From an uncultured Mediterraneibacter sp. (GTDB lineage: Bacteria > Bacillota > Clostridia > Lachnospirales > Lachnospiraceae), in contig CALWTQ010000008.1 of NCBI GenBank assembly GCA_944384505.1, positions 4,929-68,928 on the forward strand: a stretch of DNA of 64,000 bases, written 5' to 3'. Under the pieces are notes generated by a model, which saw only the letters and a program-made list of their open reading frames with translations, did not search any database and was not told the DNA's origin. A program made the position numbers and the translations under genes. This document shows positions 4,426 through 21,668 of this stretch, one piece after another (position 1 is the first letter of the stretch; each line of letters opens with the position of its first letter).

Positions 4426-5091
4426 CTATTCTTCTCTACTAAATACGCGCCCGATCTCCTGTTTAAATTTCCTAATTTCTTTCAGCGGATTCTCACTTTT
4501 CGCAATCGCCGTCCCAATAATAAAGGAATAAATAGGCAGATCTTTAAACTTCTCTATTTTATCCAGCTTCAGCTTTCCGGTCACAGATACCCGGAGCCCT
4601 TTCGAACACAGCAGCTTCACTGTCTCTGTATCCTTGTCATCCCATGCAAACCCCGGATTAACAGAATGGTAGATCACATTTTCAATCCCTGAGCTTTTCC
4701 AGGCGTCAATCAGTTCTTCCGGAAAAGGCTCATGATTCTCCACATGGATATACATATACATTTTCTTATTTCTTTTTGTATAAATCTCATCTACCGCGGC
4801 CGCCACCATATCCATATCTCTGCTGCTGACCGCTATGACAGCATCCGCACCTGCGTCCATCAGCGGCGGGACACTCCCCCTGGCGGTCGGCATCAGCATT
4901 TTTATATCTGCCACGATTTCTTTTTCCGGGAATAGTGTCTTTACATATTTTATGACACGGTTTCCTTCTGAAAAAATAATACTGGAGCCCAGTTCGATCA
5001 CATCTGCTTCCTCGCCCACACCATCTTTCAGGCAGGACAATGTCTCTTCCACAGACAATGTATCCAATGCATAATGTAATTTCGGCAGCAT
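4426..5091 (-). CDS. OMP-decarboxylase/HUMPS superfamily protein (3-hexulose-6-P synthase / 3-keto-L-gulonate-6-P decarboxylase-like), atypical active site
   Basis: LHYALD, DVIELGS, IVADIK, VSVTGKL, FIIGTAI match the HPS/UlaD (beta/alpha)8 layout; second Asp of DxKxxD is missing. Confidence 0.8.
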   Translation of the reverse strand: MLPKLHYALDTLSVEETLSCLKDGVGEEADVIELGSSIIFSEGNRVIKYVKTLFPEKEIVADIKMLMPTARGSVPPLMDAGADAVIAVSSRDMDMVAAAVDEIYTKRNKKMYMYIHVENHEPFPEELIDAWKSSGIENVIYHSVNPGFAWDDKDTETVKLLCSKGLRVSVTGKLKLDKIEKFKDLPIYSFIIGTAIAKSENPLKEIRKFKQEIGRVFSREE

Positions 5092-5103
5092 TATGACATC
5101 CTC

Positions 5104-5586
5104 CTATTTCATTTTTAGCTTATCGAATGTTACCAATTTCTCCTGAGGCATAAATTGCAGATATACTTCGACCTGTAAGTCATTCAGTTCCTTTAGCTTT
5201 TCATACTCATCCGGACTCATAAAACATGTCTTATAAACCGGTTTTCTCCCAGGAGCAGTCGGTATATTTCCGATATTCAGCTTTTTATAGTGAAACCCGG
5301 ATTTCCATGATCGATATGCTGCATCAACATCCCGGAAGAGCACCATGACTTTTCCGTCTCCAAATTGATCTTTATCCCATTCTGCCGCTGCTTTTTCAAC
5401 AGAATATACGATCGCCTTCGTTCCTACCGGAGCCGCAAACTGCAGCCCCATAGCCAGCATCTCATCCGCCGCCACAATATCGTCAATTACGATAATCTTG
5501 CTCGCTCTTACCACATTATTCCAGCTCGTCGTAATCTGTCCATGTATCATCCTGGAATCGATTCTTACAAATCCCACCTCTGCCAA
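5104..5586 (-). CDS. PTS mannose/fructose/sorbose family EIIB
   Basis: FVRIDSRMIHGQI phospho-His motif, LNIGN. Confidence 0.93.
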   Translation of the reverse strand: MAEVGFVRIDSRMIHGQITTSWNNVVRASKIIVIDDIVAADEMLAMGLQFAAPVGTKAIVYSVEKAAAEWDKDQFGDGKVMVLFRDVDAAYRSWKSGFHYKKLNIGNIPTAPGRKPVYKTCFMSPDEYEKLKELNDLQVEVYLQFMPQEKLVTFDKLKMK

Positions 5587-5622
5587 AATAACACCTCCCT
5601 ATTTTCTATATAAGATTCTAGT

Positions 5623-6498
5623 TTAAAACAATCCAATTACCGCCCCTAAGAGCGCGATTACAATCACTCCCAAAATTGCATATAGAATTTTCCCTCCTTT
5701 GCGCAGAAACGCATAGCAGCCGAGCGTCAGCGCCATCGGGAGCATACCGGGCATGATCCCATCCAAAGTCGACTGCAGACTCAGCGCAGCTCCTGTGGAG
5801 AGTTCCCATTCTGGGATTAATGAAATGCTGACATAATTTGTTGTCATAACTCCCATCATAAATGCGCCAAGCACACTTACTCCAAGCATCAGGCTTTTCA
5901 TCTTTCCAGACGTCATTACTTCCATCAGATATTTTTTCCCTTTGCTGTATCCGATGTGACAGGAAAAATACGCAATCCCGCTGAACCATAAGAAAATACA
6001 AACTGCTGCCAGCAGTCCGGCCGCACTCCCCGCAAGCGCGAACGGAATGAACAATGCCCGGAAAACAGAAGACATTGTTGCAGAGTTCAATGCATCTCCA
6101 AATCCTGCCGACGGCCCCATCAAAGCAGATTTCATACCGGTTATCGCCGCATCACTGATATCCGCTCCATTCGCCTTTTCCTCTTCCATCGCGACAGTCA
6201 GCCCGATGATCGCCGCCCCAAATCCCGGGTCAGTCATAAAAGTCTCCAGATGCCTTGTCAGAGCTTTGCTCAGATCATCTTTTCTCGGATACAGTTTTTT
6301 CAAAACCGGAATCAGTGTAACACAGACGCCCAGACCATAATATCTCTCAAAACATTGAGAAATTCTGTGGAATGACAGCCAGTAAGCCCAGGTCTTTGTA
6401 ATATCTTTCTTTGTCAATTCTATATGGGGCTTTGTCTCATTGGAATTCTGTACATTATCATTTCGTTCCATTGCTGTATTCATCGTGTTTTCTGACAT
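5623..6498 (-). CDS. PTS mannose/fructose/sorbose family EIID
   Basis: LYPRKDDLSKALTRHLETFMT, MKSALMGPSAGFGD, LQSTLDGIMPGMLP. Confidence 0.92.
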   Translation of the reverse strand: MSENTMNTAMERNDNVQNSNETKPHIELTKKDITKTWAYWLSFHRISQCFERYYGLGVCVTLIPVLKKLYPRKDDLSKALTRHLETFMTDPGFGAAIIGLTVAMEEEKANGADISDAAITGMKSALMGPSAGFGDALNSATMSSVFRALFIPFALAGSAAGLLAAVCIFLWFSGIAYFSCHIGYSKGKKYLMEVMTSGKMKSLMLGVSVLGAFMMGVMTTNYVSISLIPEWELSTGAALSLQSTLDGIMPGMLPMALTLGCYAFLRKGGKILYAILGVIVIALLGAVIGLF

Positions 6499-6515
6499 TA
6501 CATTTCCCTCCTTTT

Positions 6516-7265
6516 CTATGCTGCCGCAGTTTTATCCTGTGTAAATGTTACATGCAGTATTCCAAGGATTGCCCCGACTACCGCCGTAACTACGATCGGT
6601 ACAGACGCCACCTGTGTGATTACAACTGCCAGTACATAGTATACAAGCAGGAATGGTTTATTCAGCAGGACCAGAATCATTGCAAGCCCTGTTGCCGGCA
6701 GCATGCCACCCGCCACACGGAATCCATTCATCAGCCAGTCAGGAATTGCCTCTACCAGCGCAGTCGCTGTATTGGCGCCAAGGTACACAATCACCGCAAC
6801 GGGGATCCATCGGATAATCACATTAAAGATAAGCGGGCCGCCAATTCCATCAAACATGATCGCTTTAGTATTTGCCTGAAGAGCATGTTTGTCCGCTCTT
6901 CTTGTCCAATACCCCATGACCGTTCTCCGGAAGTTATCCAGGAATACTCCCAGTACTCCGAATGGAACGGACATGACCATTGCCTCTTCTACGCCCATAC
7001 CGGTTGACATTGCGATTGGAATAGCAACACAGCATGCAAGCTGAGAATCTACTGAGAGATTCGCTCCAGGAGCCATAACTCCCGCAATATAAAGAATCTG
7101 GAAATTACCACCCATAATAAGACCCGTTTTAAAATCTCCCATGATCAAACCGATTGCCGCGCCGATCACAATTGCCTCTTTGAAAAAGAATTGAATAAAA
7201 GGACTTTCCACATATGCAAGATAATAAATAAATCCTACTCCAATCGCAATCCATAAATTTTCCAT
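6516..7265 (-). CDS. PTS mannose/fructose/sorbose family EIIC
   Basis: IGLIMGDFKTGLIMGGNFQ, IPDWLMNGFRVAGGMLPATGLAMIL. Confidence 0.92.
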   Translation of the reverse strand: MENLWIAIGVGFIYYLAYVESPFIQFFFKEAIVIGAAIGLIMGDFKTGLIMGGNFQILYIAGVMAPGANLSVDSQLACCVAIPIAMSTGMGVEEAMVMSVPFGVLGVFLDNFRRTVMGYWTRRADKHALQANTKAIMFDGIGGPLIFNVIIRWIPVAVIVYLGANTATALVEAIPDWLMNGFRVAGGMLPATGLAMILVLLNKPFLLVYYVLAVVITQVASVPIVVTAVVGAILGILHVTFTQDKTAAA

Positions 7266-7296
7266 ATACTTTCTCCTTCCTACTCATCGTCGGAAC

Positions 7297-8337
7297 TTAG
7301 TATTTCACTTCATTTGTCAATTTTTCACCTTTCAGATACTTTTCCAGATCTGCCGATAATATTTCCATGGATAATTCTTCCAATTCGCAGCATACTCCCG
7401 CAAGATGAGGAATCAGGGTAACATTTTCTAATTTGCGCAGCGGATGGTCTGCCGGAAGCGGCTCTTCTACATATACATCAAGCGCTGCGCCCATTATTTT
7501 ATTTTCCTGCAGCGCTTTTACCAGGGCATTTTCATCCACAAGCCCTGCTCTTGCGGTATTAATGAGATATGCTTCTGGTTTCATCATTGCGAGTTCTCTT
7601 TCGCCTATCATTTTTTCTGTCTCCGATGTAAGTCTAAAATGTACGGATATAATATCAGCTGTTTTCATCAGCTCTTCTAACGTTACTTTTTCAAATCCAT
7701 CGCCCCGGATCTGTTCTTCACTGCAATACGGATCATAGACAATAATCCTGGATCCAAACGGAACTAACCTGGCAGCCACTTTCTTTCCCACCTGGCCATA
7801 TCCTACGATCCCCACAGTCATACTTTTCATCGTATGTATCCTGCCATCGTTCGGATATGGTACCTCCCATTTTCCGGCGCGCATTCCCCTGTCTCCACGA
7901 GTAATATTCCGTGTTTCTGCCAGCATCAGACCCACTGTAAAATCCGCAACCGGAACAGAAACACGCCCTGGGGACAGCACCACCCGTACACCTTTTTCTT
8001 TTGCCTTTTCTGCGTTGATATTTTCCATGCCGCTTCGCAGGAGCCCTACCATTTCCAGATGCTCACCGGCATCCAGATAGGCGCTGCAGACAGGATTTAA
8101 ATGAGCGACAAGCACATCAGCATCTTTTACTTTTTCCAGGACCTCTTCATTGACAGGCAATGCGTCAGGCCCTTCTTCCTCCATCCTGCGGAAAGAAGTC
8201 TGCAGTTCCCCCCGGTTATGGTTCTGCTTATCTTCCACAATTTCCAGCTTCGCCCCATACTTCTCCAGGTAAGAAAATCCTTTTAGCATATTTTCCTTAT
8301 CTATTCCCACGTCACTGATACATAGAATTTTTTTCAT
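7297..8337 (-). CDS. D-isomer-specific 2-hydroxyacid dehydrogenase (SerA-like, no ACT domain)
   Basis: GIVGYGQVG Rossmann motif; INTARAGLVDE, LDVYVEEPL, IPHLAG give the Arg/Glu/His catalytic set. Confidence 0.9.
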   Translation of the reverse strand: MKKILCISDVGIDKENMLKGFSYLEKYGAKLEIVEDKQNHNRGELQTSFRRMEEEGPDALPVNEEVLEKVKDADVLVAHLNPVCSAYLDAGEHLEMVGLLRSGMENINAEKAKEKGVRVVLSPGRVSVPVADFTVGLMLAETRNITRGDRGMRAGKWEVPYPNDGRIHTMKSMTVGIVGYGQVGKKVAARLVPFGSRIIVYDPYCSEEQIRGDGFEKVTLEELMKTADIISVHFRLTSETEKMIGERELAMMKPEAYLINTARAGLVDENALVKALQENKIMGAALDVYVEEPLPADHPLRKLENVTLIPHLAGVCCELEELSMEILSADLEKYLKGEKLTNEVKY

Positions 8338-8365
8338 TTTATATAATGTCTCCTTCCTTTTTCTT

Positions 8366-9235
8366 CTAGTACCGGTTTGTCTGTCCGAACAATTTCATAA
8401 AATGAATCATTTTCTCCTTGTACCCCTTTAACCCCTGTTCTTCCATGAGAAAAATCTTCGGACTGTCATCTTCCTTTAAATAATTCTGGGAATAATTCAG
8501 AGCTTCTTCCGCCAGTTCTGAAAAAATATTGATCTTAGCAATTCCGCCTTCTACAAATCTTTTCAGATTCTCATCCCCACTGTAAGAAGCGCCGTGGAGC
8601 ACAAGCGGTTTATCTACCGCAGCTTTAATCGCAGCCAATCTGTCAAAATCCATCTTTGGCTCCTTTTTATATACCCCATGCGTAGTGCCAACCGCTACTG
8701 CTACACAGTCTACGCCAGTCTGCTTTAAATACTCTGCCGCATCTTCCGGAGTGGTCAGCTCTTCCGAATCCTCTTCATAACTGAAATTGATATTTCCATT
8801 TTCATCAGGGGCGCAGAACCCCAGGCCTCCCACATGTCCAATTTCGCCTTCTACGCTCACGCCTGCAGCATGTGCCATTTTAACAACCTCTTTTGTCTGA
8901 CGCACATTTTCTTCAAACGGAAGCGAAGACTTATCAATCATCACAGACGTGTAGCCATAATGGATCATTCTTGCAGCCATATCAAAGTCAAAACCATGAT
9001 CCAGATTCAGCGCAACAGGGACTTCCGGATATTTCCTCTCCCAATATTTCGCCGCTCCGGCGATCCATTCCATGTCTTTTACGAAGCCGGATACATTGAT
9101 GATCATCGGGGCCCTAAGTTCGCTTGCCGCCTCATAACATTTCTGCACACTTTCTCCATTCCATACATTTACTGCCGCTACTGCATAATGATTTTCTACC
9201 GCATGCTCCAAAATTTTGGTCATGTTCACTAACAT
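8366..9235 (-). CDS. Class II fructose/tagatose-bisphosphate aldolase family protein
   Basis: LNLDHG, VEGEIGHVGG, VGTTHGVYK, LVLHGAS zinc-binding motifs. Confidence 0.9.
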   Translation of the reverse strand: MLVNMTKILEHAVENHYAVAAVNVWNGESVQKCYEAASELRAPMIINVSGFVKDMEWIAGAAKYWERKYPEVPVALNLDHGFDFDMAARMIHYGYTSVMIDKSSLPFEENVRQTKEVVKMAHAAGVSVEGEIGHVGGLGFCAPDENGNINFSYEEDSEELTTPEDAAEYLKQTGVDCVAVAVGTTHGVYKKEPKMDFDRLAAIKAAVDKPLVLHGASYSGDENLKRFVEGGIAKINIFSELAEEALNYSQNYLKEDDSPKIFLMEEQGLKGYKEKMIHFMKLFGQTNRY

Positions 9236-9334
9236 AATGCCAATCCTCCTTTTTATTAATACACTGAAGCGTTCTCTCCATCCCTGCCCTTTTGTAATTC
9301 CACCTCCTGTCCGGCTTTTTTTCTGACAGAGTTC

Positions 9335-9742
9335 CTATTGATTCATTTGCTGATTAAATGTCTCCGTCACATTCATCATCTGACGCTTTCCTTCCTCAAT
9401 CGCATATTCAACTCTGTCTGAAATTTTCTCTGAAGTTTCATCCAAAGCATACTGAATCAAAAGAGCCAGATTCAAACCTGAAACGATCGTATAGTTCTTA
9501 TATTTTTTTGAATTGCGAAGCGCTACATTGCATGGTGTCCCCGATATGATATCTACCATCACAACAATATTTTCTCCATCCTGCGCTGCAGAGGCAATTG
9601 TATTAAACTGTTCTTCCACAGCCTCAGGACTCATCTCCGGCTGCACACAAATCGTATAGGTATTCTTTATTTCCCCTATGATCATCTGTGCGCTGTGCAG
9701 AATTCCTTCAGCAAAGTTTCCATGCGTCATTAAAATTAGCAT
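9335..9742 (-). CDS. PTS mannose-family EIIA
   Basis: LMTHGNFAEG phospho-His, MVDIISGTPCN, VSGLNLALL. Confidence 0.9.
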   Translation of the reverse strand: MLILMTHGNFAEGILHSAQMIIGEIKNTYTICVQPEMSPEAVEEQFNTIASAAQDGENIVVMVDIISGTPCNVALRNSKKYKNYTIVSGLNLALLIQYALDETSEKISDRVEYAIEEGKRQMMNVTETFNQQMNQ

Positions 9743-10389
9743 TTGGCACCTCCTTTATTTTCATCTATTCCTGTTTTTGCATACAGCCATTTCCTTTTCT
9801 GCATATCTTGTTCTATATACTGCACAATTTTTTCTTTGTACTGCATCGTTCTCTCAACATCATTCATCCCTTCCAGAAGAGCTTGCTTTCTTGCCTTATC
9901 TATCTCAAATTGATAAGTCTCCCCGGAAGGGGTTTTTACGGTTTCCTTTGGCAAGTCTACTTCGAATATGCCTCCTGTTTCCGCCTCTTCTGCTATCTTT
10001 ACCACAATGCTTTCTGGCAGTTTAACCGGAAGTATCCCCTGCTGATAACAGTTTTTTGTGAAAATACCGCCAAAAGAACTTCCAATCAGACATCGGATCC
10101 CGCACTTTCTAATCGCCTCAGGCGCAGTCTCTCTGGAACTCCCACAGCCGAAATTCTCTCCTGTAATCATAATCTTTGCATCTTTATTACGTTCCATATT
10201 CAGGGGAAAGTCCATGTTTAATGCACCTTTATCTCCATCACCGTTTACAAACCGATACGGTTCAAAAGAGTAATAAGCTATATTATCCATATCCAGTAAA
10301 AGCCGCTTCATCGGTGTAATGCAGTCTGTATCAACATTCGCCATCAGCCACGGAACCGCCTGGCTTTTAAGTACTTCAAACCTTTCCAT
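9736..10389 (-). CDS. 3-isopropylmalate dehydratase-like small subunit (LeuD type, divergent)
   Basis: [48 protein letters not shown]. Confidence 0.88.
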   Translation of the reverse strand: MERFEVLKSQAVPWLMANVDTDCITPMKRLLLDMDNIAYYSFEPYRFVNGDGDKGALNMDFPLNMERNKDAKIMITGENFGCGSSRETAPEAIRKCGIRCLIGSSFGGIFTKNCYQQGILPVKLPESIVVKIAEEAETGGIFEVDLPKETVKTPSGETYQFEIDKARKQALLEGMNDVERTMQYKEKIVQYIEQDMQKRKWLYAKTGIDENKGGAKC

Positions 10390-10400
10390 GATTCCTCCTT

Positions 10401-11795
10401 CTATACAATCCTGCCATTTAAAGCCGCAAGAGCTGCTGTATAGGGAGCCGCCAAATGGGTTCTCGCGCCTCTTCCCTGCCTGCCGATAAAGTTTCTATTC
10501 GTAGTTGACACACAGCGTTTTCCAGGAGGGATCATTTCTCCATTGCTTCCCACACACAGGCTGCAGCTTGGCTCTCCCCACGAGAATCCTGCTTTTGTAA
10601 AAATCTCTGCGATCCCCATCTGTTCCGCAGTTTTCTTCACCTGCGCAGATCCGGGCACAATCCACGCTGTCACGCCTTCCGCCACTTTTTTCCCTCTGAC
10701 TAATTCTGCGATTTGTTTTAGGTATGTAATCCTTCCATTGGAACATGAACCGATAAATACATAGTCCACACTAATCTCGCTCATAGCTTGTCCTGCCCGG
10801 AGATCCATATACGCATACGCTTTTTCGTAAGACTGTTTTTCTGCTATTGACGATCCTTTCACAATCTCAGGCACCCGCCCGTCTACGGCAACCGTCTGAG
10901 ATGGGTCGACTCCCCAGCTTATCTGCCGGCTTATCCCTGAAATATCAAATGTGATTTCCCTGTCAAATATACTTTCCGATGTCGTCGCAATCTGCCCGCA
11001 GTATTCTTTCATGGCATCCCAGTTATCACCTGATGGCGCGTATTCTCTCGTTCGCAGATATTCCAGTGTAGTTTTGTCCGGAGAGACCATTCCATATTCT
11101 GCGCCCAATTCAATTGTCAGATTGCACAATGTACATCTCTCATCAATATTCATGTGACGTACAACTTCTCCTGTATACTCCACGGCATACCCCACACCAA
11201 AATCAATTCCGACCTGTGAGATGATAAACAGTATGATGTCCATCGCGCTGATATCTTCCTTCCGCCGTCCTTTAATTTCAATTTTCAAAGTCTTTGGCTT
11301 TTTTGCGATGACGCATGTGGTTGCCAGTGCATGATACACCTCGCTTGTTCCCACCCCCATCGCAAGCGCGCCGACTGCGCCATGAGTACAAGTATGGCTG
11401 TCGCCGCATACGATTGTCATACCCGGCAGGGATAACCCGGTTTCAGGCCCTATAATATGAACGATTCCCTGATGACTGTCTCCGGTATCAAAAAGAGTAA
11501 TCCCGTATCTTTTGCACCCTTCCCGGAACTTCGGCATAATCAGTCTGCTGATCTCACAGGCGTCTTTTCTTTGGTCTTTGCGGGATGGCAGCGTATGATC
11601 CGGAGTTGCATATACATTTTCTCTGCGAAATATATCTTTTTTATTTTCCTTCATCATCTGAAAAGCAAACGTCCCGCACAGGTCATGGAGGTATATTCTA
11701 TCCACTGCCAGTAAATAACTCTCTTCATCCAGCTGTTCTATAACATGAGAATCCCACAGTTTTTCAAACAGAGTGTTCATCTTCTTTTTCAGCAC
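10401..11795 (-). CDS. 3-isopropylmalate dehydratase-like large subunit (LeuC type, divergent)
   Basis: [32 protein letters not shown], [4Fe-4S] ligands GSCSNGR and CSLCVG, STTNRNFIGRQG; start may be the ATG at 11780. Confidence 0.9.
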   Translation of the reverse strand: MLKKKMNTLFEKLWDSHVIEQLDEESYLLAVDRIYLHDLCGTFAFQMMKENKKDIFRRENVYATPDHTLPSRKDQRKDACEISRLIMPKFREGCKRYGITLFDTGDSHQGIVHIIGPETGLSLPGMTIVCGDSHTCTHGAVGALAMGVGTSEVYHALATTCVIAKKPKTLKIEIKGRRKEDISAMDIILFIISQVGIDFGVGYAVEYTGEVVRHMNIDERCTLCNLTIELGAEYGMVSPDKTTLEYLRTREYAPSGDNWDAMKEYCGQIATTSESIFDREITFDISGISRQISWGVDPSQTVAVDGRVPEIVKGSSIAEKQSYEKAYAYMDLRAGQAMSEISVDYVFIGSCSNGRITYLKQIAELVRGKKVAEGVTAWIVPGSAQVKKTAEQMGIAEIFTKAGFSWGEPSCSLCVGSNGEMIPPGKRCVSTTNRNFIGRQGRGARTHLAAPYTAALAALNGRIV

Positions 11796-12300
11796 CTTCC
11801 TCCAGTTTTATCTTTAAATATGCCATCAGGCCGCCTGCGCTCAGCTGCGCTCTTAAATCTTCCGGTATCGGCGTTCCTTCCATTATGGTTCCTTTCGTCA
11901 GGTTCCGGATCCTCCCTGTCTCCAGATCTACTTCCAGTTCATCTTTCACATCTGTGTTCTCCGATATTTTTTTACAAATCACACACGGGAGTCCGATATT
12001 CAATGCATTTCTGTAAAAAATTCTGGCAAATTCTTCTGCAATCACCATTTTTGTACCAGCAGCTTTTAATGCAATCGGCGCTGTCTCCCGGCTCGATCCG
12101 CATCCAAAATTCTTCCCGGCAATCAGAATTCCCCCCTGTGCCATTTTTGAGGGAAAATCCGGTTCTAAATCACACAGGCAGATGGAACCTAAATATTCTG
12201 GATCATAAGAAGTCAAATATTTTCCCGGCGTCATTACATCTGTGTCAATATGATCCCCCAGCTTCTCCAAAACTTTATATCTTACCTTTGTCTGCAACAT
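11764..12300 (-). CDS. Aconitase-family small subunit (HacB/DmdB/short LeuD type)
   Basis: [48 protein letters not shown]. Confidence 0.9.
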
Positions 12301-13632: not shown

Positions 13633-14511
13633 TTAGTCTTCATTTAACACATCAAATACACGGGCATGTTTGTGTGTGCGGAATACATTCTTCAACTTTC
13701 CTGTAGAATAGAATACAGCGAGTCTGAGATCCTCGTCATAATTATTAAATGTTTTGGACGGCTGTTCCGGCGCATTATATCTCATAATTCCAGGACGTAA
13801 AGCAAGCCCCAGGTTCGGCATAATTACAGTTCCTCTTCCAGTGATCGCGAATTCCAACTCGTCTACTCCCGGATGGGAAACAAAATCTTCTTCCGGAGAA
13901 GACACTCCCGGTTTCTGGATCGGATGAAGGAAACAGATGTTATTTCCCTCGAAGATGATGGATGTCAGATGCCCCTCATCTGGTTTATTTCCAGTAAAGC
14001 CCGGCGCTGTTCTCTGTATTCCGTCATTGATATTCTTTACAATACAGCCGTTCTCACTGTCATATGTATCCCCCTCTTTATAAGCATTCCGTTTTACATC
14101 TTTCAGCGGTTTTGAATAAACCACAACATATTTCAGTACTTCTTTAGAATTATTTATGATTCCGTGAGGGTGCCCTTCTTTCAGATAAAAACTGATATCC
14201 GGCTTTAACTCGTATGTCTTTCCTTCCGGCAGCAAAAGTGTTCCTTCCCCCTGCAGAATCAATGTGATTTCCTCACAGTCCGGGTGCATAGTAAGTCCCT
14301 CTGCCGGCGCAGCCACTCCGGGTTCGATAGACACATACTGCATACTGATCTTCTCCAGATCGTATAGATTCTTGCAAACACATCCCGCAATTCCCTCCCG
14401 AATAAAGGACTGCGTACCCGGGATCACCTTTTTCAGGTGATAATCGTATCCCGTCTCCATGTCCAAAAATCCATAATGATTCTTTCCGTCTTTGAGTTCA
14501 AATTGTTTCAT
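13633..14511 (-). CDS. Bicupin (two cupin barrels) protein
   Basis: Cupin motif 1 MHPDCEEITLILQGEG..HPHG; second repeat SHPGVDELEFAITGRG. Confidence 0.75.
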   Translation of the reverse strand: MKQFELKDGKNHYGFLDMETGYDYHLKKVIPGTQSFIREGIAGCVCKNLYDLEKISMQYVSIEPGVAAPAEGLTMHPDCEEITLILQGEGTLLLPEGKTYELKPDISFYLKEGHPHGIINNSKEVLKYVVVYSKPLKDVKRNAYKEGDTYDSENGCIVKNINDGIQRTAPGFTGNKPDEGHLTSIIFEGNNICFLHPIQKPGVSSPEEDFVSHPGVDELEFAITGRGTVIMPNLGLALRPGIMRYNAPEQPSKTFNNYDEDLRLAVFYSTGKLKNVFRTHKHARVFDVLNED

Positions 14512-14559: not shown

Positions 14560-15963
14560 TTATTCAAGAATATATTTTTCAACCTCTTCCGCGAGAATAT
14601 GAATATCTTTTATTTTTTCCAGGTCAGATAACATTTTCAAAATTGGGTCAATTCCCTCTTCACGGACCGCTCTCTTCATACAGTCTCTCCACTTCTCTCC
14701 CATCTCTTCTCTCGTCATCGGATTATTGGGCCCGCCTTTTGCGAAGTCACAACGTTCTTTTAATACAATGCCATTCTTCAGCGTAACTTCCACCTGAGTA
14801 CTCTCCAGTGCATCGAAATAGGCTCCCGGTATCAGCGTATCATCCAGTATCATGTCTATCCGTTTCATCATCTCGATCAATGTTTTATCCCGCACGGTAT
14901 CTCCTTCAAAATCCTGCATCGTGAGTTTTCTCTGAAGTACTATTAACGCAATACAGTAATTCATACTGAATTTTCCTTCTGTCGGTGTCTTAGCGATGCT
15001 ATATCTGAGAATGTCTCCCGCATAGGGAAGGACTTTACAGTCAATATGCCGGATTTCTTCCGGTTTGATATCGTATTTATTCAGCAGGCTCAGCATTGCC
15101 CAGATGCCATTATGCGTTGCTTTGCAGGCCGGCCAAGGCTTCATGATCAGTCCTTTGTCAAGGAACTCTGAGTTCTGAATCTTCATAGCTTCTTCCAATT
15201 TATCTTCGTGACAAACTCCTGTCGTCACTTTTGTAAATCCGGCATCCATTTCCATAATAGTACGATTTGAGGTAAAACCTTTTTGGGCAAGCTTTGCCGC
15301 CATAATTCCTTTTGATGCAGCGCGGCCCGCATGAAGCGGCTTTGTCATACTTCCTGTATTTCCTTTCAGGCCGCAGGACTCACTTGCCGCAATTCCAATG
15401 GCGTTTACCAGCTCTTCTTCCGTAAGCTTAAGCAGCTCTGCCGCTGCTGCCGCCGCCCCGAATACGCCAATTGTTTCTGTACTGTGCCACCCTCTTCTGC
15501 AGTGTTCAGGAATATAAGCCCTCCCCATAAGCGCACAGGTTTCAATCCCCGTAATGTACGCTCGCAGCACTGCGCTGCCATCTGCACTGGTCTCCTCTCC
15601 GGCTGCCAGGACTGCCGGAAGAACCGCAACGCTTGGATGTCCGATCATCGTTGTGCAGACATCATCATAATCATGAAAATGTGCAGCCACTCCATTTACC
15701 ATAGCACTATGGCAGGCATCTGATCTTATATGTGAGCCATAGATATAGGCAGCGGCTTTACCGCCTTCAGAACATACATATTCCTTAACAATCTGTGTGG
15801 CAGTTTCATTTGCGCCCGCCAGCATACAGGCAAATGTGTCCGAAAAAAATTCAAGCGCTTTTTCCTTAACTCCCTCTTTCAGCTGCCTGGCGCGCATTTC
15901 AATCAGATAATGCGCAATTTTTTCACTCATTGATTTCATTTTTTCATCTTTCCTTCTCATCAT
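14560..15963 (-). CDS. MmgE/PrpD family protein
   Basis: NGVAAHFHDYDD, GHPSVAVLPA, GWHST, TKPLHAGRAA, KPWPAC, EGKFSMNY, AKGGPNNPM. Confidence 0.92.
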   Translation of the reverse strand: MMRRKDEKMKSMSEKIAHYLIEMRARQLKEGVKEKALEFFSDTFACMLAGANETATQIVKEYVCSEGGKAAAYIYGSHIRSDACHSAMVNGVAAHFHDYDDVCTTMIGHPSVAVLPAVLAAGEETSADGSAVLRAYITGIETCALMGRAYIPEHCRRGWHSTETIGVFGAAAAAAELLKLTEEELVNAIGIAASESCGLKGNTGSMTKPLHAGRAASKGIMAAKLAQKGFTSNRTIMEMDAGFTKVTTGVCHEDKLEEAMKIQNSEFLDKGLIMKPWPACKATHNGIWAMLSLLNKYDIKPEEIRHIDCKVLPYAGDILRYSIAKTPTEGKFSMNYCIALIVLQRKLTMQDFEGDTVRDKTLIEMMKRIDMILDDTLIPGAYFDALESTQVEVTLKNGIVLKERCDFAKGGPNNPMTREEMGEKWRDCMKRAVREEGIDPILKMLSDLEKIKDIHILAEEVEKYILE

Positions 15964-15980
15964 CTTCCGCTTTAAGTATT

Positions 15981-16163
15981 ACGTTTTACTATTACGTTAT
16001 ACTGTAACGATATACTATTCTCCTTATATTGTCAATAATTGTTTTATAATTCACCGATATTTTGGCATATTTGACAATATTTCAAAACATTATTGCTTTC
16101 CTCGCTCAAACAGTTTATAATATTAGAGTTAAGAATATTTAGTTTAACGTTTAAGTAAAACGA
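15981..16163. promoter_or_regulatory. Putative LacI-family operators in divergent promoter region
   Basis: ACGTTTTACTATTACGT at 15981-15997 (+) and TCGTTTTACTTAAACGT at 16147-16163 (-); same motif recurs at 20118 and 20223. Confidence 0.6.
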
Positions 16164-16216: not shown

Positions 16217-17242
16217 ATGGTTACCATTAAAGATGTTGCGGCAAGAGCAAATGTCTCCGTTACTACCGTGTCAATCGTACTGAACGGCAAAGCTGCAGAA
16301 AGAAAAATTTCAGACGCTACTGTCACCCGGATCATGAATGCTGTTGCACAATTGAACTATCAGCCAAACATTGCCGCCAGGAAACTGCGTGCCTTTGATA
16401 AAAACAGAGCCAATATTGGCATTTATCTGGCATATGACCATCGTTCCAGCATGCTCAGTCAGTTTGTGGAGGCCATATATAAGGAGCAGGCGAATAGTAT
16501 CCATGATTTTTACATTACTATCTGTCCCTTTAAAAGCGGAGCTTTAAGCGAAGAAGAGACTTTGCTCTCTACTGCTTCCTTTAACGCGGCTATTATCGCC
16601 ACCACAGCGCCTTCTGATATGGAATATCTGCGTGAGAACCGGCCTCCTTTTCCGGTTGTCCTAATGAACCGCTCCATAGAAGGTTTATCTTCTGTCTGCG
16701 CAGATATTAATGACTCAATTGAAGAACTCGCAGAGCAGGCTGCGCATAAAGGGCATCAGCGGATAGCTGCCATTTTAATGAAAGATGCTTATATGGCTAA
16801 CAAGTTCCGTTCCCAGAATTTCCTTGCTGCATGCCGCAGGCATAATATTAACTGCTCAGACGAACACCTCATTCTTACAACAGATTCCCTGTCCGGAGGA
16901 GCAGAAGCCGCGCGGAAACTCCTGGACAGTCCTAATATGCCCGGATTTCTATATTGTGATACAGATTCTATTGCACTGGGAGCTGTCAGTGTATTGAACC
17001 GGAAAGGAATTCGTATTCCAGAAGATCTGGAAGTTGTGTGTATCTGCCTGTCCAGCCCAGACTATACAGCGTACAGCACGCCTTCCATAACGACTATCGA
17101 TGTATCTCTTGAGAAGAATATGGTTGATTGTCTGAAGCTGGCACTAGACTTATTGTTTAACAAGACAATGGAATCAATTCAAAAAGTTTATAGTGCTCCA
17201 ATTCTATATCGGGAATCTTTTCCCCGGCTCGAAGACGTTTAG
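16217..17242 (+). CDS. LacI-family transcriptional regulator
   Basis: MVTIKDVAARANVSVTTVSIVLN HTH; YQPNIAARKL hinge; PSITTI. Confidence 0.93.
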   Translation: MVTIKDVAARANVSVTTVSIVLNGKAAERKISDATVTRIMNAVAQLNYQPNIAARKLRAFDKNRANIGIYLAYDHRSSMLSQFVEAIYKEQANSIHDFYITICPFKSGALSEEETLLSTASFNAAIIATTAPSDMEYLRENRPPFPVVLMNRSIEGLSSVCADINDSIEELAEQAAHKGHQRIAAILMKDAYMANKFRSQNFLAACRRHNINCSDEHLILTTDSLSGGAEAARKLLDSPNMPGFLYCDTDSIALGAVSVLNRKGIRIPEDLEVVCICLSSPDYTAYSTPSITTIDVSLEKNMVDCLKLALDLLFNKTMESIQKVYSAPILYRESFPRLEDV

Positions 17243-17277: not shown

Positions 17278-17312
17278 CAGTGTCAGGAAGATCTCGCCTC
17301 TTCCTGGCACTG
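17278..17312. terminator. Hairpin between convergent LacI and amidohydrolase genes
   Basis: CAGTGTCAGGAAG / CTTCCTGGCACTG stem (one G-U pair). Confidence 0.65.
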
Positions 17313-17339: not shown

Positions 17340-18803
17340 TTAATTATTCTGTGAACTCTTCCCCGGGAACGGATTGTCGGCAAATCTTCCTATCGCTTCT
17401 TCTGCCACAATCTTAAAGTTCTCCGCAACAAGGTTTCCTCTCACAAAAGTTGCCACTGGCGCGCCTTTTAGCTGCATTCCATCATACAGGCTGTACTTAT
17501 GAGAACTTTCGCTGTATTCCTTATGGAATATCCATTCTTTGTTCAGATCCAGTATGACAATATCTGCATCTGAACCAACGTTTAAAGCTCCCTTCTGTGG
17601 ATAAAGCCCCATCGCTTTCGCAGTATTTTCACACATGATCTTCCTCAGGGTGTCGAGAGAAATCCGATTCTTATTTACTCCTTCACTGATCATGATGCTT
17701 AAAGACGCACTCATTCCTTCTCCTGTTCCCGGCGGAGTATCCCAGTAATTCCTGCCCAATTTTTCTTCCGGCCGGAAATTGGTATGGTCATTCCCAATCG
17801 TCTGAATTACCCCTTCCTGAATCCCCTTCCATAAGCGCTCTCTGTCTGCGCTTTCCCTGATCGCCGGGTTTACCTTTGCATAGTGTGTCCATTCCTTGTT
17901 ATTTCTGCATATCTCATCGTCTGCCGCAAATACCAGATAATGAGGGCAGGTTTCGGCCGTTATATCATATCCCAGTCCTTTGAAGTACTTAATCTGCTCC
18001 ACAGCCTCTTTAGAACTAACATGCACAATATAAAGCGGACAATGTGTCTCATGCGCGATATATGCAGCCTTACATACGTCAATCGCCTCCGCAATAGCCG
18101 GCCTGGCCCGGTTCTGCCTCTCCGTATAGTTATAGTCTGCGGGCGGCGCTTCCTTCTTAACTCTTTCTTCCAGTAATTCAAAAATCTGCGGATCCTCACA
18201 ATGCACCATGGCTGTCGCAGGCAGCCCTGTTTTTCCTATTATTTCAAATCCTTTGTATAAAAAAGTAGAATCAATTCCCCTTTCGTCCATTCCAAGGGCT
18301 TTCGCGCCCTCTCCCCTGTATCCCATAAGGAATTTATAGTTGCTCACCCCTTTTTCTACAAGTTTAGGAATTTCCTGAAGATGCTCTTCTGTGAACGGTG
18401 AAATGTGGAATCTCACATCACAAAAAGCACTGCCTTCCAACCCATCCTTAAATTCTCTGAACCGTTTTGTCATAGCATCAGCATTCTGCATCGTTGTACT
18501 GCTGATCGTTGTATAGCCGCCCTGGACTGCTGTTCTGGTTTCAGATCGCACCTCTTCTTTATAAGTCTCCAGATTAAATTTCTTATCTTTATTTACGACC
18601 CACAGTTCAAAATGGCAGTGCGGTTCTATAGCCCCCGGAAAAATGATATTTTTTTTCGCATCATAATAGTTTTCCGCTTCCGGAAGAGACGCATCGGCTC
18701 CCACTTGTATTATAACTCCGTCCTTTACGGCCACGCCGCCTGTCACCACTCCCTGCTCTGTACAAACATACCCATTTCCAATTACTAAATCTGCTTTTGT
18801 CAT
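17340..18803 (-). CDS. Cyclic amidohydrolase (dihydropyrimidinase/allantoinase/dihydroorotase superfamily)
   Basis: EPHCHF (HxH), NYKFLMGY (carbamylated Lys), MVHCED, IVHVSS, AKVNPAIR, IGNDH, KGALNVGSDADIVI. Confidence 0.9.
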   Translation of the reverse strand: MTKADLVIGNGYVCTEQGVVTGGVAVKDGVIIQVGADASLPEAENYYDAKKNIIFPGAIEPHCHFELWVVNKDKKFNLETYKEEVRSETRTAVQGGYTTISSTTMQNADAMTKRFREFKDGLEGSAFCDVRFHISPFTEEHLQEIPKLVEKGVSNYKFLMGYRGEGAKALGMDERGIDSTFLYKGFEIIGKTGLPATAMVHCEDPQIFELLEERVKKEAPPADYNYTERQNRARPAIAEAIDVCKAAYIAHETHCPLYIVHVSSKEAVEQIKYFKGLGYDITAETCPHYLVFAADDEICRNNKEWTHYAKVNPAIRESADRERLWKGIQEGVIQTIGNDHTNFRPEEKLGRNYWDTPPGTGEGMSASLSIMISEGVNKNRISLDTLRKIMCENTAKAMGLYPQKGALNVGSDADIVILDLNKEWIFHKEYSESSHKYSLYDGMQLKGAPVATFVRGNLVAENFKIVAEEAIGRFADNPFPGKSSQNN

Positions 18804-18812: not shown

Positions 18813-20090
18813 CTACCCTTCTTCATCTTCCACTTTTACAAAAATATCCGCAGCATGCGGAATAACCAGAAACGTTGCATCCCTGCCGTATAGTCTGAGC
18901 GAATCCTCCACTGCATCCTGTACTGTAGGATAATAATGGAAAAACATTTCTTCCAGCTCTTCTCTGGACATCAGACTGTTCGCAATACTGATCCGATGTT
19001 TCATCATCCCTCTTGCCCACATATAAGCCTTACCAGTCGCATCCGCTGTCATTCCGACACGTTTAAAAAGGTCAATTACTTCCTGTGGACTATTTGCATT
19101 CTTCAGGTGTTTCCCAAATTTTGCCGATCCATCCGGGGCTTCCGCGCATACAATAATATGTCCTCCCGGCCTGCAGGCCATTTCTGCTACAGAACTTGCT
19201 TTCTGGGCCTGATGCAGATCAAAGTCTCTCGGATAACCCCCCGGGCTTACAATCACAACATCCGCTCTTGTCGGAATACTGGTCGTCCAAATCTCTGCAC
19301 ATATCTTTGTCCCGGCTATATGGGCTTCATTTAAATCCCCGGCCACAGCCGCGACCATTTCCCGGCTGGCATTGTCAATATTATTGACAATAAAGTCAAC
19401 GCCTGCCAGTCTTGCCGCTGCCAGCGCCTGCTCATGAAACAGATTTCCTTCCATCCACCCCATTGCTGGATCTGCCGGAACTACAGGAAATGAATGATGC
19501 AGTTTCAGGCACGCCATTCCGGAAATTCCCGGAACAATGCTTTTTCTTCCTCCTGAAAACCCGGCACAGGAATGTGGAGTAATAAGTCCTGTCAGTATTT
19601 TTACTTCCGCCTCCGCGAACTCCTTATTGATCTGCACCGTCATGCCATACTTTGTTTTCCCAAGCGTTTTCAAAGTACTGTCATCGTCGGCCTTGTGATG
19701 AACAAAGCGGAATCTTCTTACTATATTTTCGCCAAACATCTGTATTAGCTCTTCTTCCGTTTCCACACGGTGCGTTCCATACGCTACTACCAGAAAAATT
19801 TCCTCATCTTTGAGGCCAGCCATATGCAATTCATCCGCAATCTCCTCTACCATTATTCCCCCCGGATATGGACGGGTAATATCATTTACCACGATTGCCG
19901 CCGAATGCTTTCCTTTGGCAATTTCTTTTAATCTGGGAGACCCTATGGGATTTTGAATCGTCCTCCGGATCTCCTGCCGTGCATCCGGCACTCCTTTCAC
20001 ATCTTTCGGCTCCGCTATTTTTAATACATTCGGTACGGAAGCTTTAACATATCCCTTTCCCAGCGGCAGCCTAATTTCTGTACGTTCCAT
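18813..20090 (-). CDS. LarA-family nickel-pincer-dependent racemase/epimerase
   Basis: VNDITRP, YGTHR, PHSCAGFSGGRKSIVPG, LHH, GGYPRDFDLHQAQKA match LarA catalytic and NPN-binding positions. Confidence 0.9.
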   Translation of the reverse strand: MERTEIRLPLGKGYVKASVPNVLKIAEPKDVKGVPDARQEIRRTIQNPIGSPRLKEIAKGKHSAAIVVNDITRPYPGGIMVEEIADELHMAGLKDEEIFLVVAYGTHRVETEEELIQMFGENIVRRFRFVHHKADDDSTLKTLGKTKYGMTVQINKEFAEAEVKILTGLITPHSCAGFSGGRKSIVPGISGMACLKLHHSFPVVPADPAMGWMEGNLFHEQALAAARLAGVDFIVNNIDNASREMVAAVAGDLNEAHIAGTKICAEIWTTSIPTRADVVIVSPGGYPRDFDLHQAQKASSVAEMACRPGGHIIVCAEAPDGSAKFGKHLKNANSPQEVIDLFKRVGMTADATGKAYMWARGMMKHRISIANSLMSREELEEMFFHYYPTVQDAVEDSLRLYGRDATFLVIPHAADIFVKVEDEEG

Positions 20091-20117
20091 CTTTTCACCT
20101 CTCCAAGAATAAGTTTA

Positions 20118-20239
20118 ACGTTATAGTTTTTCGTTAAATTAATTCTAATTTAGTACTATCCTATTGTCAACATATTTCTTTAATTATTGACAAAAAATTG
20201 GAATTATAAGATAATTAATATAACGTTTTACTATAACGT
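20118..20239. promoter_or_regulatory. Putative operators in second divergent promoter region
   Basis: ACGTTTTACTATAACGT at 20223-20239 (16/17 identical to 15981 copy); ACGAAAAACTATAACGT at 20118-20134 (-). Confidence 0.6.
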
Positions 20240-20267
20240 AAATATTATTCATGGAGGTGTCAGCTTT

Positions 20268-21668
20268 ATGATTGATTTTCATTCCCAGATAACCCGGTGG
20301 TCTATCAGCGAGCTTTCTGAAAAATATAGCCGTCTGGAAGTTTCTCCCGTTGAGGCTGTCTCGATTCTTTTAGACAATATAGAACACAGTCAGACGATTC
20401 TTAATTCTTTTATAACGGTCTGCCGTTCCCATGCCCTGAAACAGGCACGTCAGTCAGAAAAACGCTATCTTGAGAAATCTCCTCTCGGAATACTGGACGG
20501 TATTCCTTACGCAGCGAAAGACCTGATCTATACGAAAGGGATTCCTACCACGATGGGCTGCTCATACTATAAGGATTTCCGGCCTTCTTATAACGCACAT
20601 GTCATTACCCTGCTGGACAATCAAGGCTCTGTTCTTCTGGGAAAGGCAAATACACAGCAGTTTGCCATGGGCGCAACCGGTGACCGGTCTTTCACCGGGT
20701 CTGTGCATAATCCCTGCGATCCGTCAAAAATCTCCGGTGGTTCCAGCTCCGGTTCTGCCGCTGCTGTCGCCTCGGGTCTGTGCTCCTTCGCGCTGGCAAC
20801 TGATACCGGCGGTTCCGCCCGCGTACCGGCAGCTCTGTGCGGTGTCACAGGGATTAAACCGACTTATGGGAGGATCAGTACAAGAGGCATCTTTCCGGCA
20901 TCCACTACTTTTGATACAGTAGGCATTATTTCTGAATCTGTCCGTGACAGCGCAATTGTATTAAATGCGATCGCCGCATTCGATTCTGCAAATCCACTTT
21001 CATGCAGCTATCCTCAGGAAGATTTTACCCGCTCCCTCGAGAGCTCTCTCTCCGGAAGCATTATCCATATTCCCGAAGAACAGGTTCGCGGAAAGGCAGA
21101 CAGCGATATTGAGAAGAACTTTTGGAAATCCATACGGCTGCTAAAAGAACACGGCGCTGTTATCAGACATATGTCTTTTCCTGATTACTCTCTCTATCGT
21201 CAGGTCAGGACACAGATTTTATTTGCCGAAGCCTACTGTACACATGAGCAACTATATAATAAACATCCTTCTGTCTACGATGAAGATGTACGGAGTGATT
21301 TAGAAAACGGAAAAAAGATAACAGCTCCCGCATATATCCGCCTGTTAGAAAAGAATCGTGAATTCTCACTCATCTTTAGAGATCTGTTTAAAGATGTGGA
21401 AATCATGGCAGTCCCCTCCACTTCTATAGCTGCTACTGATATTGATTATCGTGGGAATGTCACAGTAAACGGAACGTGCACCGGACTATATGAAGCATTA
21501 TCCAGATTTAACTGGTTCTCCAGCATGAGCGGATATCCTGCTATCACAGTTCCCAATGGTTTCAGCGGGAATCTGCCAACAGGGATCCAGTTTATCGCCC
21601 GGCCATTCCAGGAAAATCGTCTGTATCAAATTGCTTATCAGCTTGAAAAATTACAGGAAATGTGCTGA
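20268..21668 (+). CDS. Amidase-signature family amidase (GatA-like, stand-alone)
   Basis: YAAKDLI, ISGGSSSGSAAAV, ATDTGGSARVPA give an intact Ser-cisSer-Lys triad; start moved from track 20187 to the ATG at 20268 behind GGAGGT. Confidence 0.9.
   Translation: MIDFHSQITRWSISELSEKYSRLEVSPVEAVSILLDNIEHSQTILNSFITVCRSHALKQARQSEKRYLEKSPLGILDGIPYAAKDLIYTKGIPTTMGCSYYKDFRPSYNAHVITLLDNQGSVLLGKANTQQFAMGATGDRSFTGSVHNPCDPSKISGGSSSGSAAAVASGLCSFALATDTGGSARVPAALCGVTGIKPTYGRISTRGIFPASTTFDTVGIISESVRDSAIVLNAIAAFDSANPLSCSYPQEDFTRSLESSLSGSIIHIPEEQVRGKADSDIEKNFWKSIRLLKEHGAVIRHMSFPDYSLYRQVRTQILFAEAYCTHEQLYNKHPSVYDEDVRSDLENGKKITAPAYIRLLEKNREFSLIFRDLFKDVEIMAVPSTSIAATDIDYRGNVTVNGTCTGLYEALSRFNWFSSMSGYPAITVPNGFSGNLPTGIQFIARPFQENRLYQIAYQLEKLQEMC

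Follow-up and report, generated by a model that had tools for sequence, protein, structure and literature searches.

The 64,000-nt stretch of DNA analyzed here (hereafter, the window) comes from an uncultured Mediterraneibacter sp. of the Lachnospiraceae (contig CALWTQ010000008.1), and our subject is a 17-gene locus at window positions 4426-21668. The locus brings together a mannose-family phosphotransferase system (PTS), two LeuCD-type pairs, a PrpD-family protein, a bicupin, a LarA-family protein, a cyclic amidohydrolase, an amidase and an unusual member of the HUMPS family (Table 1). Our analysis confirms a genuine and complete catabolic locus of undescribed specificity, inherited as a unit and apparently co-regulated, in which known enzyme superfamilies stand in a new combination. 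An earlier note on this DNA had described a 13-gene minus-strand run with short gaps or overlaps, a divergent LacI gene, a LarA-plus-amidohydrolase pair and a divergent amidase; the open reading frame (ORF) listing agrees, and Pfam and NCBIfam return the same families that the note had assigned to all 17 genes.

In the ORF listing, 13 consecutive minus-strand ORFs span 4426-15963 with gaps of 11-99 nt and two overlaps (9736-9742 and 11764-11795). The EIIA gene, which sits between the LeuD_b and aldolase genes, has a 7-nt overlap with the stop end of the LeuD_b gene, and the second of these sites is a nominal overlap between LeuC_b and LeuD_a. All 17 genes are present and intact, and catalytic or ligand motifs are intact in every enzyme checked for them. 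As the note had stated, no leuA/leuB, gatB/C or pyr gene lies within the cluster according to the ORF list, Pfam and NCBIfam. An Rfam scan of 3000-24000 found no riboswitch or leader. In its database form, the PrpD-like protein has 459 aa and starts at 15939.

Table 1. Genes and regulatory features of the 17-gene locus (window coordinates)
Feature	Position	Strand	Basis and remarks
HUMPS-family enzyme, atypical KGPDC/HPS-like	4426..5091	-	PF00215; last gene of 13-gene operon
PTS EIIB, mannose family	5104..5586	-	PF03830
PTS EIID, mannose family	5623..6498	-	PF03613
PTS EIIC, mannose family	6516..7265	-	PF03609
D-isomer-specific 2-hydroxyacid dehydrogenase, SerA/PdxB/glyoxylate-reductase-like	7297..8337	-	PF02826, PF00389
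Class II ketose-(bis)phosphate aldolase, AgaY/YdjI-like	8366..9235	-	PF01116, TIGR00167
PTS EIIA, mannose family	9335..9742	-	PF03610
LeuD-type small subunit, bacterial type (pair b; LeuD_b)	9736..10389	-	PF00694, NF002458
LeuC-type large subunit, bacterial type (pair b; LeuC_b)	10401..11795	-	PF00330, NF009116
LeuD/HacB/DmdB-type small subunit, archaeal type (pair a; LeuD_a)	11764..12300	-	TIGR02087
LeuC/HacA-type large subunit, archaeal type (pair a; LeuC_a)	12313..13563	-	NF001614
Bicupin	13633..14511	-	Weak PF07883
MmgE/PrpD-family protein	14560..15963	-	PF03972, PF19305; first gene of operon
Predicted promoter of 13-gene operon with three tandem operator-like TATAACGTTATA copies	15977..16035		Motif and promoter search
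LacI-family repressor, divergent from operon	16217..17242	+	PF00356, PF13377
Bidirectional terminator-like hairpin between convergent LacI and amidohydrolase genes	17278..17312		14-bp stem, both strands; inverted repeat
Cyclic amidohydrolase, hydantoinase/dihydropyrimidinase/allantoinase clade	17340..18803	-	PF01979
LarA-family nickel-pincer 2-hydroxyacid racemase/epimerase, malate-racemase-like	18813..20090	-	PF09861, PF21113
Predicted divergent promoters (LarA operon, amidase), each followed by an operator-like TATAACGTTATA copy	20114..20241		Motif and promoter search
Amidase-signature hydrolase	20268..21668	+	PF01425; start most likely as revised

One line of evidence that these genes belong together is their inheritance. 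The same 17 genes recur in unchanged order, at 52-86% protein identity, in a cultured isolate, Mediterraneibacter hominis NSJ-55, and in two additional lineages represented by metagenome contigs (L004/L005 and L006/L007). The flanks are unrelated in each carrier: an HTH-cupin gene and a trailing HPr gene in one lineage, PPDK and His_Phos genes in the other metagenome lineage, and chemotaxis and flagellin genes downstream of the locus in M. hominis NSJ-55. The HPr gene is a dedicated copy placed after the HUMPS-like gene (18643-18689 in L004, 17735-17781 in L005), and the window locus is without one. The earlier note had proposed the genes as one candidate catabolic system and had named a lack of co-conservation among the results that would speak against it; the full synteny in other lineages, together with the shared and conserved operator described below, upholds the view of a single co-regulated and conserved system. 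It also leaves next to no room for a chance mosaic or an assembly artefact with no functional unity. Such an origin might be suspected from the 141 contigs of the window genome assembly and from the absence of the locus in other sampled species of the genus. The gene order is identical in independent metagenome contigs and an isolate genome, the shared operator is conserved and the active sites that were checked are intact, and the recurrence of the 17-gene order in other lineages refutes a mosaic.

The locus is rare and accessory. Searches of 36 other species of the genus did not find the PrpD orthologue, and searches of 400 other genera of the family did not find the amidohydrolase orthologue. 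The window sequence is found almost only in chicken-gut metagenomes, and no RNA run holds it. A PrpD search of species-representative genomes gave, among the matches listed, a best hit of 42% identity, with 79 of 80 loci showing unrelated PrpD-family contexts, and so says little about distribution; a bicupin search of the JGI metagenomes gave four loci, all of them short or of a type with DASS carriers (see below). The regulon is probably transferable between genomes.

The three transcription units share an operator-like sequence. A search of the window for the 12-bp palindrome TATAACGTTATA, permitting up to two mismatches, returned seven matches, and five of the seven lie in the two divergent promoter regions: a tandem array at 15977, 15990 and 16003 (15977-16014) and single copies at 20114 and 20219. 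The strongest promoter-like sites of the region are found in the same places. They read TTGACA-17-TATCGT for the 13-gene operon (minus strand, 16035-16007) and TTGACA-17-GATAAT for the amidase (plus strand, 20187-20215, score 11/12), and a third, promoter-like site precedes the LarA operon (minus strand, 20170-20142, score 11/12). All three promoters carry TATAACGTTATA, which either overlaps the best -10 box or follows shortly after it. ATG 20268, and not TTG 20187, is the most likely start of the amidase: it gives 466 aa, in keeping with the 463-464 aa of the orthologues, and frees 20187-20267 as promoter/operator DNA.

The palindrome is kept at the corresponding sites in both divergent regions of L004, in the amidase/LarA region of L006 and M. 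hominis (including a perfect copy), and in the LacI/cupin region of a variant locus with an ATP-binding cassette (ABC) importer (L091). It was not found in the variant loci that use other regulators. LacI itself is 66-72% identical in the PTS-type loci and 68% identical in the ABC-type locus. The presence of a shared, conserved palindrome beside predicted promoters supports LacI control of all three units, and the cluster looks like one LacI regulon, with TATAACGTTATA as the presumed LacI binding site.

Judged by profile scores, conserved residues and nearest structures, no enzyme of the cluster appears to be a housekeeping or textbook member of its family. All four mannose-family PTS components score far above their Pfam cut-offs (EIIA-man, PTSIIB_sorb, EII-Sor, EIID-AGA), and the phosphorylatable histidines are in place (EIIA His7 in MTHG, EIIB His15 in RIDSRMIHGQ). 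Every component nevertheless scores below the Man-, Aga-, Gam- and Sor-specific NCBIfam cut-offs (AgaF, the closest EIIA model, 87 versus 130; EIID-AGA 189 versus 293). The dehydrogenase has PGDH and glyoxylate reductase as its top NCBIfam matches, both under cut-off. The aldolase passes TIGR00167 (228.6 versus a cut-off of 215.6) without reaching the specific FBA/TBA equivalogs; its Zn and catalytic motifs (LDHG, THG, LHG) are present, and its closest entries in the Protein Data Bank (PDB) are AgaY (1gvf) and YdjI (6ofu).

The last gene of the operon, which the earlier note had called an atypical HUMPS enzyme, deserves the adjective. In an alignment with E. coli KGPDC, the protein keeps D11, E33, D62, K64, E112, H136 and T169 and has lost D67 of DxKxxD (P/T), R139 (N, with a 4-residue deletion) and R192 (T). 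With DxKxxD and the Arg residues incomplete and all NCBIfam scores under cut-off (the closest models are SgbH/UlaD, at 131 bits versus 250, and HPS, all far under it), the protein falls outside KGPDC and HPS proper. Its closest PDB entries are 3exr and 1kv8, and its family is tiny (9 clusters among 5.8e9 proteins). The cyclic amidohydrolase has an intact binuclear metal site (H62xH64, the Lys in NYKFLMGY, VHCED, VHVSS, NDH). It stays under every equivalog cut-off (TIGR02033, the top match, 271 versus 393; allantoinase 243 versus 358), and its closest PDB entries are L- and D-hydantoinases (1gkr, 1nfg).

The two tandem pairs of Aconitase and Aconitase_C domain proteins belong to different classes, one of the bacterial LeuCD type and one of the archaeal/HacAB/DmdB type. 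Both small subunits pass a model of their class (LeuD_b, NF002458, 178 versus 167; LeuD_a, TIGR02087, 176 versus 109). The large subunits pass at the subfamily level and fall short of a narrower model: LeuC_b scores 593 versus 531 for NF009116 and 527 versus 560 for the leuC equivalog TIGR00170, and LeuC_a scores 546 versus 385 for NF001614 and 460 versus 611 for TIGR02083. The Fe-S cysteine triads (LeuC_b C351/C411/C414; LeuC_a Cys299/Cys359/Cys362) are present, as is GSSRE in both small subunits. The substrate loop of LeuD_b reads ITPMKRLL, the E. coli LeuD motif being IIPKQFL, and that of LeuD_a is altered relative to IIPARYLNSF of the genome's housekeeping LeuD. As a separate housekeeping leuCD is found on contig C11, both cluster pairs are extra copies, and LeuC_a is only 42% identical to the housekeeping LeuC. 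By the marks of a biosynthetic LeuCD (leuA/leuB neighbours, sole copy, equivalog score), the cluster pairs lie outside that class. LeuCD relatives include maleate and dimethylmaleate hydratases, and D-malate is the product of maleate hydratase.

The bicupin has just a weak PF07883 match and no NCBIfam match, and its family too is tiny (15 clusters among 5.8e9 proteins). Its AlphaFold2 model (pLDDT 87) is a bicupin whose closest folds are UGlyAH/YlbA-type bicupins and oxalate decarboxylase (TM 0.6-0.67, 10-15% identity). Each barrel keeps a His...Glu pair (H76/E80 and H213/E218) and not the canonical 3-His/1-Glu metal site, the C-terminal barrel being the better conserved one in a 15-sequence alignment. 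The PrpD-like protein is not PrpD proper (equivalogs at 33-55 bits versus cut-offs of 458-950, and no prpB/prpC); its closest PDB entry is iminodisuccinate (IDS) epimerase 2hp0 (1e-67), followed by B. subtilis IRG1 and cis-aconitate decarboxylases.

LarA carries the motifs GTHR, PH, GGRKS and LHH, which account for the two catalytic His, the Lys that binds NPN and the His that binds Ni, has LarAH6 malate racemase as its top NCBIfam match (395 bits versus a cut-off of 500) and Mar2 (6d6z) as its closest PDB entry. Because larC and larE are present elsewhere in the genome (C1:192.8-195.7 kb), its cofactor can be made. Malate racemases epimerise tartrate as well (PMC11770544). The amidase carries the GGSSSGS motif, and its top NCBIfam matches (GatA, AtzE-family, allophanate hydrolase) are all under cut-off. 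It is not GatA, for which it gives a partial match at 298 bits versus 481 and has no adjacent gatB/gatC; the closest PDB entries are GatA, FAAH and allophanate/biuret hydrolases.

What the locus may do becomes clearer from related loci in which parts of it recur. In the DASS type (L008, L009 and L102), LacI, the bicupin (44% identity), the PrpD-like protein (51%) and both LeuCD pairs (53-70%) occur with one or two DASS di/tricarboxylate carriers, and the PTS, dehydrogenase, aldolase, HUMPS enzyme, LarA and an amide hydrolase are absent. The ABC type, on one 20-kb contig (L091 and L093), has LacI (68%), the bicupin (82%), the LeuCD pairs (60-75%) and the PrpD-like protein (49%). It adds a ribose-type ABC importer, a Zn-dependent alcohol dehydrogenase (Zn-ADH), an RbsD pyranase (above cut-off), a CN-hydrolase whose top matches are nitrilase and N-carbamoylputrescine amidase, and an FGGY kinase, and further a 2-hydroxyacid dehydrogenase, a class II aldolase and an aldehyde dehydrogenase. 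In the third type, from Clostridium sp. AM58-1XD (L103), the block EIIA-aldolase-dehydrogenase-EIIC-EIID-EIIB-HUMPS is kept at 55-83% identity (74% for the dehydrogenase). The cyclic amidohydrolase (61%) comes directly after the HUMPS gene and is followed by two isochorismatase-family hydrolases and an HpaI-like aldolase. The second isochorismatase, the one checked of the two, is nearest to solved N-carbamoylsarcosine amidase and maleamate amidases. This locus is without any LeuCD, PrpD or cupin gene, and no bicupin or LeuC_b orthologue was found anywhere in the AM58-1XD genome. Its regulator is a tandem GntR/FCD protein, and the MocR type was rejected for it.

One further cluster (L092, 3283-10885), which adjoins a different mannose-type PTS, contains two PF04199 "cyclase" genes, a ferredoxin, a PrpD-like protein (36%), an amidase (38%), a Zn-ADH and a bicupin (57%). 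The PF04199 genes are of the kynurenine-formamidase/isatin-hydrolase type, so that a cyclic-amide hydrolase, an amidase, a PrpD-family protein and a cupin are again found together.

From these gene neighbourhoods, the PTS, aldolase, dehydrogenase, HUMPS-like enzyme and cyclic amidohydrolase are evidently one unit, and the bicupin, the two LeuCD pairs and the PrpD-like protein are evidently a separate one, which by its predicted functions can work on an imported di- or tricarboxylate alone. A second amide hydrolase always goes with the sugar-import versions; across them it belongs to one of three families with no relation to one another (amidase signature, isochorismatase, CN-hydrolase).

This pattern bears directly on the two interpretations that the earlier note had left side by side: (a) import of a sugar conjugated to an N-heterocycle or imide, followed by ring opening, deamidation and splitting, and (b) a linear route for a branched-chain sugar acid. 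The former fits the module pattern better. The latter would take a 2-substituted-malate-like phosphosugar acid through LeuCD, the dehydrogenase, the HUMPS-like enzyme and the aldolase, leaving LarA, the amidohydrolase and the amidase as accessories. Its chemistry is a plausible analogue of LeuCD/LeuB, its genes stand in one operon, and a D-specific dehydrogenase would match the D configuration that 3-isopropylmalate has at C2. However, the dehydrogenase/HUMPS/aldolase/PTS block is kept in AM58-1XD where LeuC_b and the cupin are missing, the LeuCD pairs with the PrpD-like protein and cupin occur without the dehydrogenase or HUMPS enzyme, and the conserved, co-regulated amidohydrolase and amidase go unexplained. 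As its gene blocks occur independently of each other, we consider the linear route improbable.

The same modularity might mean that two or three short, independent pathways are held under one repressor, serving substrates that co-occur in plant or feed material and caecal contents. One could take in a sugar acid or an amide-bearing sugar through the PTS, another could serve a free hydroxy- or unsaturated di- or tricarboxylate (tartrate-, aconitate-, citraconate- or maleate-like), and a third a cyclic imide or ureide. The LeuCD/PrpD/cupin core does exist with DASS carriers alone, the PTS block with the amidohydrolase exists without the core, and the LarA/amidohydrolase unit and the amidase are separate transcription units. 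On the other hand, Pfam finds no carboxylate carrier in the window locus, where the PTS is the only transporter; one tightly packed operon mixes PTS genes with LeuCD genes and has an overlap between them; the 17-gene set is intact across three lineages; and the ABC variant shows the core, along with a LacI of 68% identity, re-coupled to another import-plus-kinase system. The missing carrier, the interleaving and this re-coupling count against separate substrates, which we think unlikely and still take seriously, and we find it probable that the locus is one single functional system.

Known pathways offer partial templates for such a system. In the aga/dga mannose-PTS operons of E. coli and Salmonella, as here, catabolic genes surround EIIABCD, a member of the amidohydrolase superfamily strips an amide function from a phosphorylated sugar, and a class II AgaY/KbaY-type (or other) aldolase leads to triose phosphate; the window aldolase is nearest to AgaY. 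Unlike them, the window locus is without AgaS/AgaI, the DgaE deaminase and tagatose-6-phosphate kinase, its amidohydrolase falls in the hydantoinase clade and not the NagA/AgaA clade, and it adds the LeuCD, PrpD, cupin and LarA genes. The ula and sgb/yiaK systems for L-ascorbate and 2,3-diketogulonate likewise use a HUMPS-family Mg-enediolate enzyme (3-keto-L-gulonate-6-P decarboxylase UlaD/SgbH) on a sugar acid phosphorylated by a PTS or a kinase, and a dehydrogenase could provide the keto acid, but the UlaG lactonase, the UlaE/UlaF epimerases and an SgaTBA-type PTS are missing from the window locus.

For the amide chemistry, the cyclic-imide pathway of Blastobacter (Ogawa and Shimizu) reportedly runs through an imidase and a half-amidase and then a maleate hydratase to D-malate. 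The window locus resembles this pathway, and the hydantoinase plus N-carbamoylase pathway, at the family level: a dihydropyrimidinase-like ring opener would be followed by a second amide hydrolase, and its LeuCD and malate-racemase-like enzymes could convert a (substituted) maleate first into D-malate-type and then into L-malate-type products. Those pathways, in contrast, act on free imides and hydantoins and have no link to a PTS or to sugar-phosphate enzymes. The LeuCD pairs share the two-subunit Fe-S architecture, the three Cys and GSSRE with LeuCD, DmdAB (dimethylmaleate hydratase of nicotinate fermentation) and HbzIJ maleate hydratase, but differ in being two classes in tandem with a bicupin and a PrpD-like protein and in their altered substrate loops, and the other enzymes of the DmdAB nicotinate fermentation are all absent from the window locus. 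The nearest solved relatives of LarA and of the PrpD-like protein, malate racemase Mar (LarAH5/6) and IDS epimerase/cis-aconitate decarboxylase, act on small polycarboxylates; the window proteins are under the family cut-offs, and their genomic setting is entirely different.

As far as gene content and scores can tell, each known analogue covers part of the locus, with its defining partner genes absent or its equivalog cut-offs unreached. In line with the earlier note, which had recognised no described pathway of this kind, literature searches (PrpD/cupin/LeuCD/LarA/PTS, hydantoinase/PTS, hydroxycitrate, rhamnogalacturonan-II acids) found none with this gene combination.

We favour a reading in which a LacI-controlled regulon of three modules degrades a sugar or sugar acid bearing a cyclic imide or ureide, plus a carboxylate part, and we put its chance at a little short of even. 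Module A would comprise the mannose-family PTS (EIIABCD), the cyclic amidohydrolase, the dehydrogenase, the class II aldolase and the KGPDC/HPS-like enzyme; module B, the bicupin, the PrpD-family protein and the two different LeuCD-type Fe-S (de)hydratases; and module C, the amidase-signature hydrolase and the malate-racemase-like LarA. The steps proposed here are all inferred from protein family and module pattern. The PTS would import and phosphorylate the compound (in the ABC variant, the ABC importer and the kinase would do so), and the cyclic amidohydrolase would open its ring. The amidase would then take off the remaining amide or carbamoyl group, splitting the phosphosugar from a substituted maleate- or malate-type di- or tricarboxylate. 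This step could itself part a glycosylamine-type phosphosugar from the dicarboxylate, which would account for the absence of a glycosidase or deglycase.

From there the two halves would go separate ways. The dehydrogenase, HUMPS-like enzyme and aldolase would turn the phosphosugar part into triose phosphate. The two LeuCD pairs would hydrate or isomerise the released acid, LarA would epimerise its 2-hydroxy centre, the PrpD-like protein, with LarA or in its stead, would epimerise the acid or else decarboxylate it, and the bicupin might complete the conversion to a central metabolite. In AM58-1XD, the HpaI-like aldolase would take the place of all these carboxylate steps, and in the DASS variant the acid would be imported directly. 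LacI would hold all three promoters through TATAACGTTATA until an intermediate releases it. The most far-reaching form of this reading is an undescribed pathway in gut Lachnospiraceae for a cyclic imide or ureide joined to a sugar by an N- or C-linkage. In it a hydantoinase-type enzyme would act on the PTS-phosphorylated conjugate, and an alkyl-maleate/malate-type acid would pass to the LeuCDs, the bicupin, the IDS-epimerase-like protein and the nickel-pincer epimerase. We regard this form as rather doubtful.

Several observations weigh against the three-module reading. No recognisable glycosidase, deglycase or C-N lyase is encoded in the cluster, which makes the proposed parting of sugar and acid hypothetical, and no cyclic amidohydrolase is present in the 20 kb of the ABC-type locus that was seen. 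The dehydrogenase and aldolase of that locus are only 33% and 40% identical to those of the window and may not be orthologues. The independent occurrence of the modules is equally compatible with separate substrates that share a regulator. To our knowledge, hydantoinase-type enzymes and mannose-family PTSs have no substrate in common, and we know of no sugar-derived substrate for LeuCD-type enzymes.

Another kind of conjugate would be an Amadori- or opine-type compound of heated feed or food, such as deoxyfructosyl-Asn, -Gln or -pyroglutamate. The amidohydrolase would open a lactam, the amidase would deamidate, and an N-substituted amino-dicarboxylate would be epimerised by the PrpD-like protein in the manner of IDS epimerase, its nearest solved relative. 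In favour of this, uptake of fructoselysine and glucoselysine by mannose-family PTSs is known (Salmonella gfr), and the habitat is the chicken and human gut. Yet Pfam finds no SIS-type deglycase or amadoriase, LeuCD, cupin and LarA would not be needed to handle freed Asp or Glu, LarA substrates are 2-hydroxy acids and not amino acids, and opening of pyroglutamyl lactams is not known from hydantoinase-type enzymes. We hold this explanation to be most improbable.

A number of individual substrates were also considered and rejected: muramic delta-lactam (no etherase, LeuCD genes unexplained), nicotinate by its fermentation (no Mo or B12 enzymes present), allantoin (no phosphorylatable hydroxyl, LeuCD genes unexplained), ascorbate (ula and sgb partner genes absent), fructosyl-amino acids (no deglycase), and pseudouridine, dihydrouridine, vicine and riboflavin (no supporting gene).

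The surroundings of the locus have a gene content unrelated to the cluster. The left flank (1-4305) holds a CUT1-type ABC importer (a substrate-binding protein and two permeases, minus strand) and a second LacI-family regulator (3268-4305, plus strand), which is convergent with the end of the operon. As orthologues of this CUT1/LacI system occur at 69-85% identity in 15 of 40 other species sampled, it belongs to the genus backbone and not to the accessory locus. On the right lie a Sir2-like gene, FMN reductases, a TetR gene and an Fe-alcohol dehydrogenase gene (25796-26953), the product of which clusters at ≥90% identity with proteins of Anaerostipes butyraticus and Anaerostipes sp. This points to an Anaerostipes of the chicken caecum as the probable host. 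In a comparison aimed at the empty site, the left- and right-flank orthologues were on separate contigs in relatives. A different cluster (L010, 4418-14409, and L011), centred on the same PrpD-family clade (42-45% identity), combines two PrpD-family genes with a TRAP transporter, a PEP-mutase/isocitrate-lyase-family protein, a PrpF-like isomerase and a single archaeal-type LeuCD pair; it is probably another uncharacterised tricarboxylate route.

If the interpretation is true, the locus marks an uncatalogued gut nutrient, probably a sugar conjugate of dietary or host origin that occurs both in the human colon and in chicken caeca. First functions would follow for a new bicupin family, an atypical HUMPS enzyme, two catabolic LeuCD classes, a LarA homologue and a hydantoinase-clade enzyme. 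Should the substrate be a glycosylated imide or ureide, the known substrate chemistry of four or more enzyme families would be extended, and a new class of gut nutrient would be indicated. The variants amount to a comparative design, in which import is by PTS, by ABC importer plus kinase or by DASS carrier, and the LeuCD core is present or an HpaI-like aldolase stands in its place. With two carriers in culture, Mediterraneibacter hominis NSJ-55 and Clostridium sp. AM58-1XD, the question can be put to a direct test.

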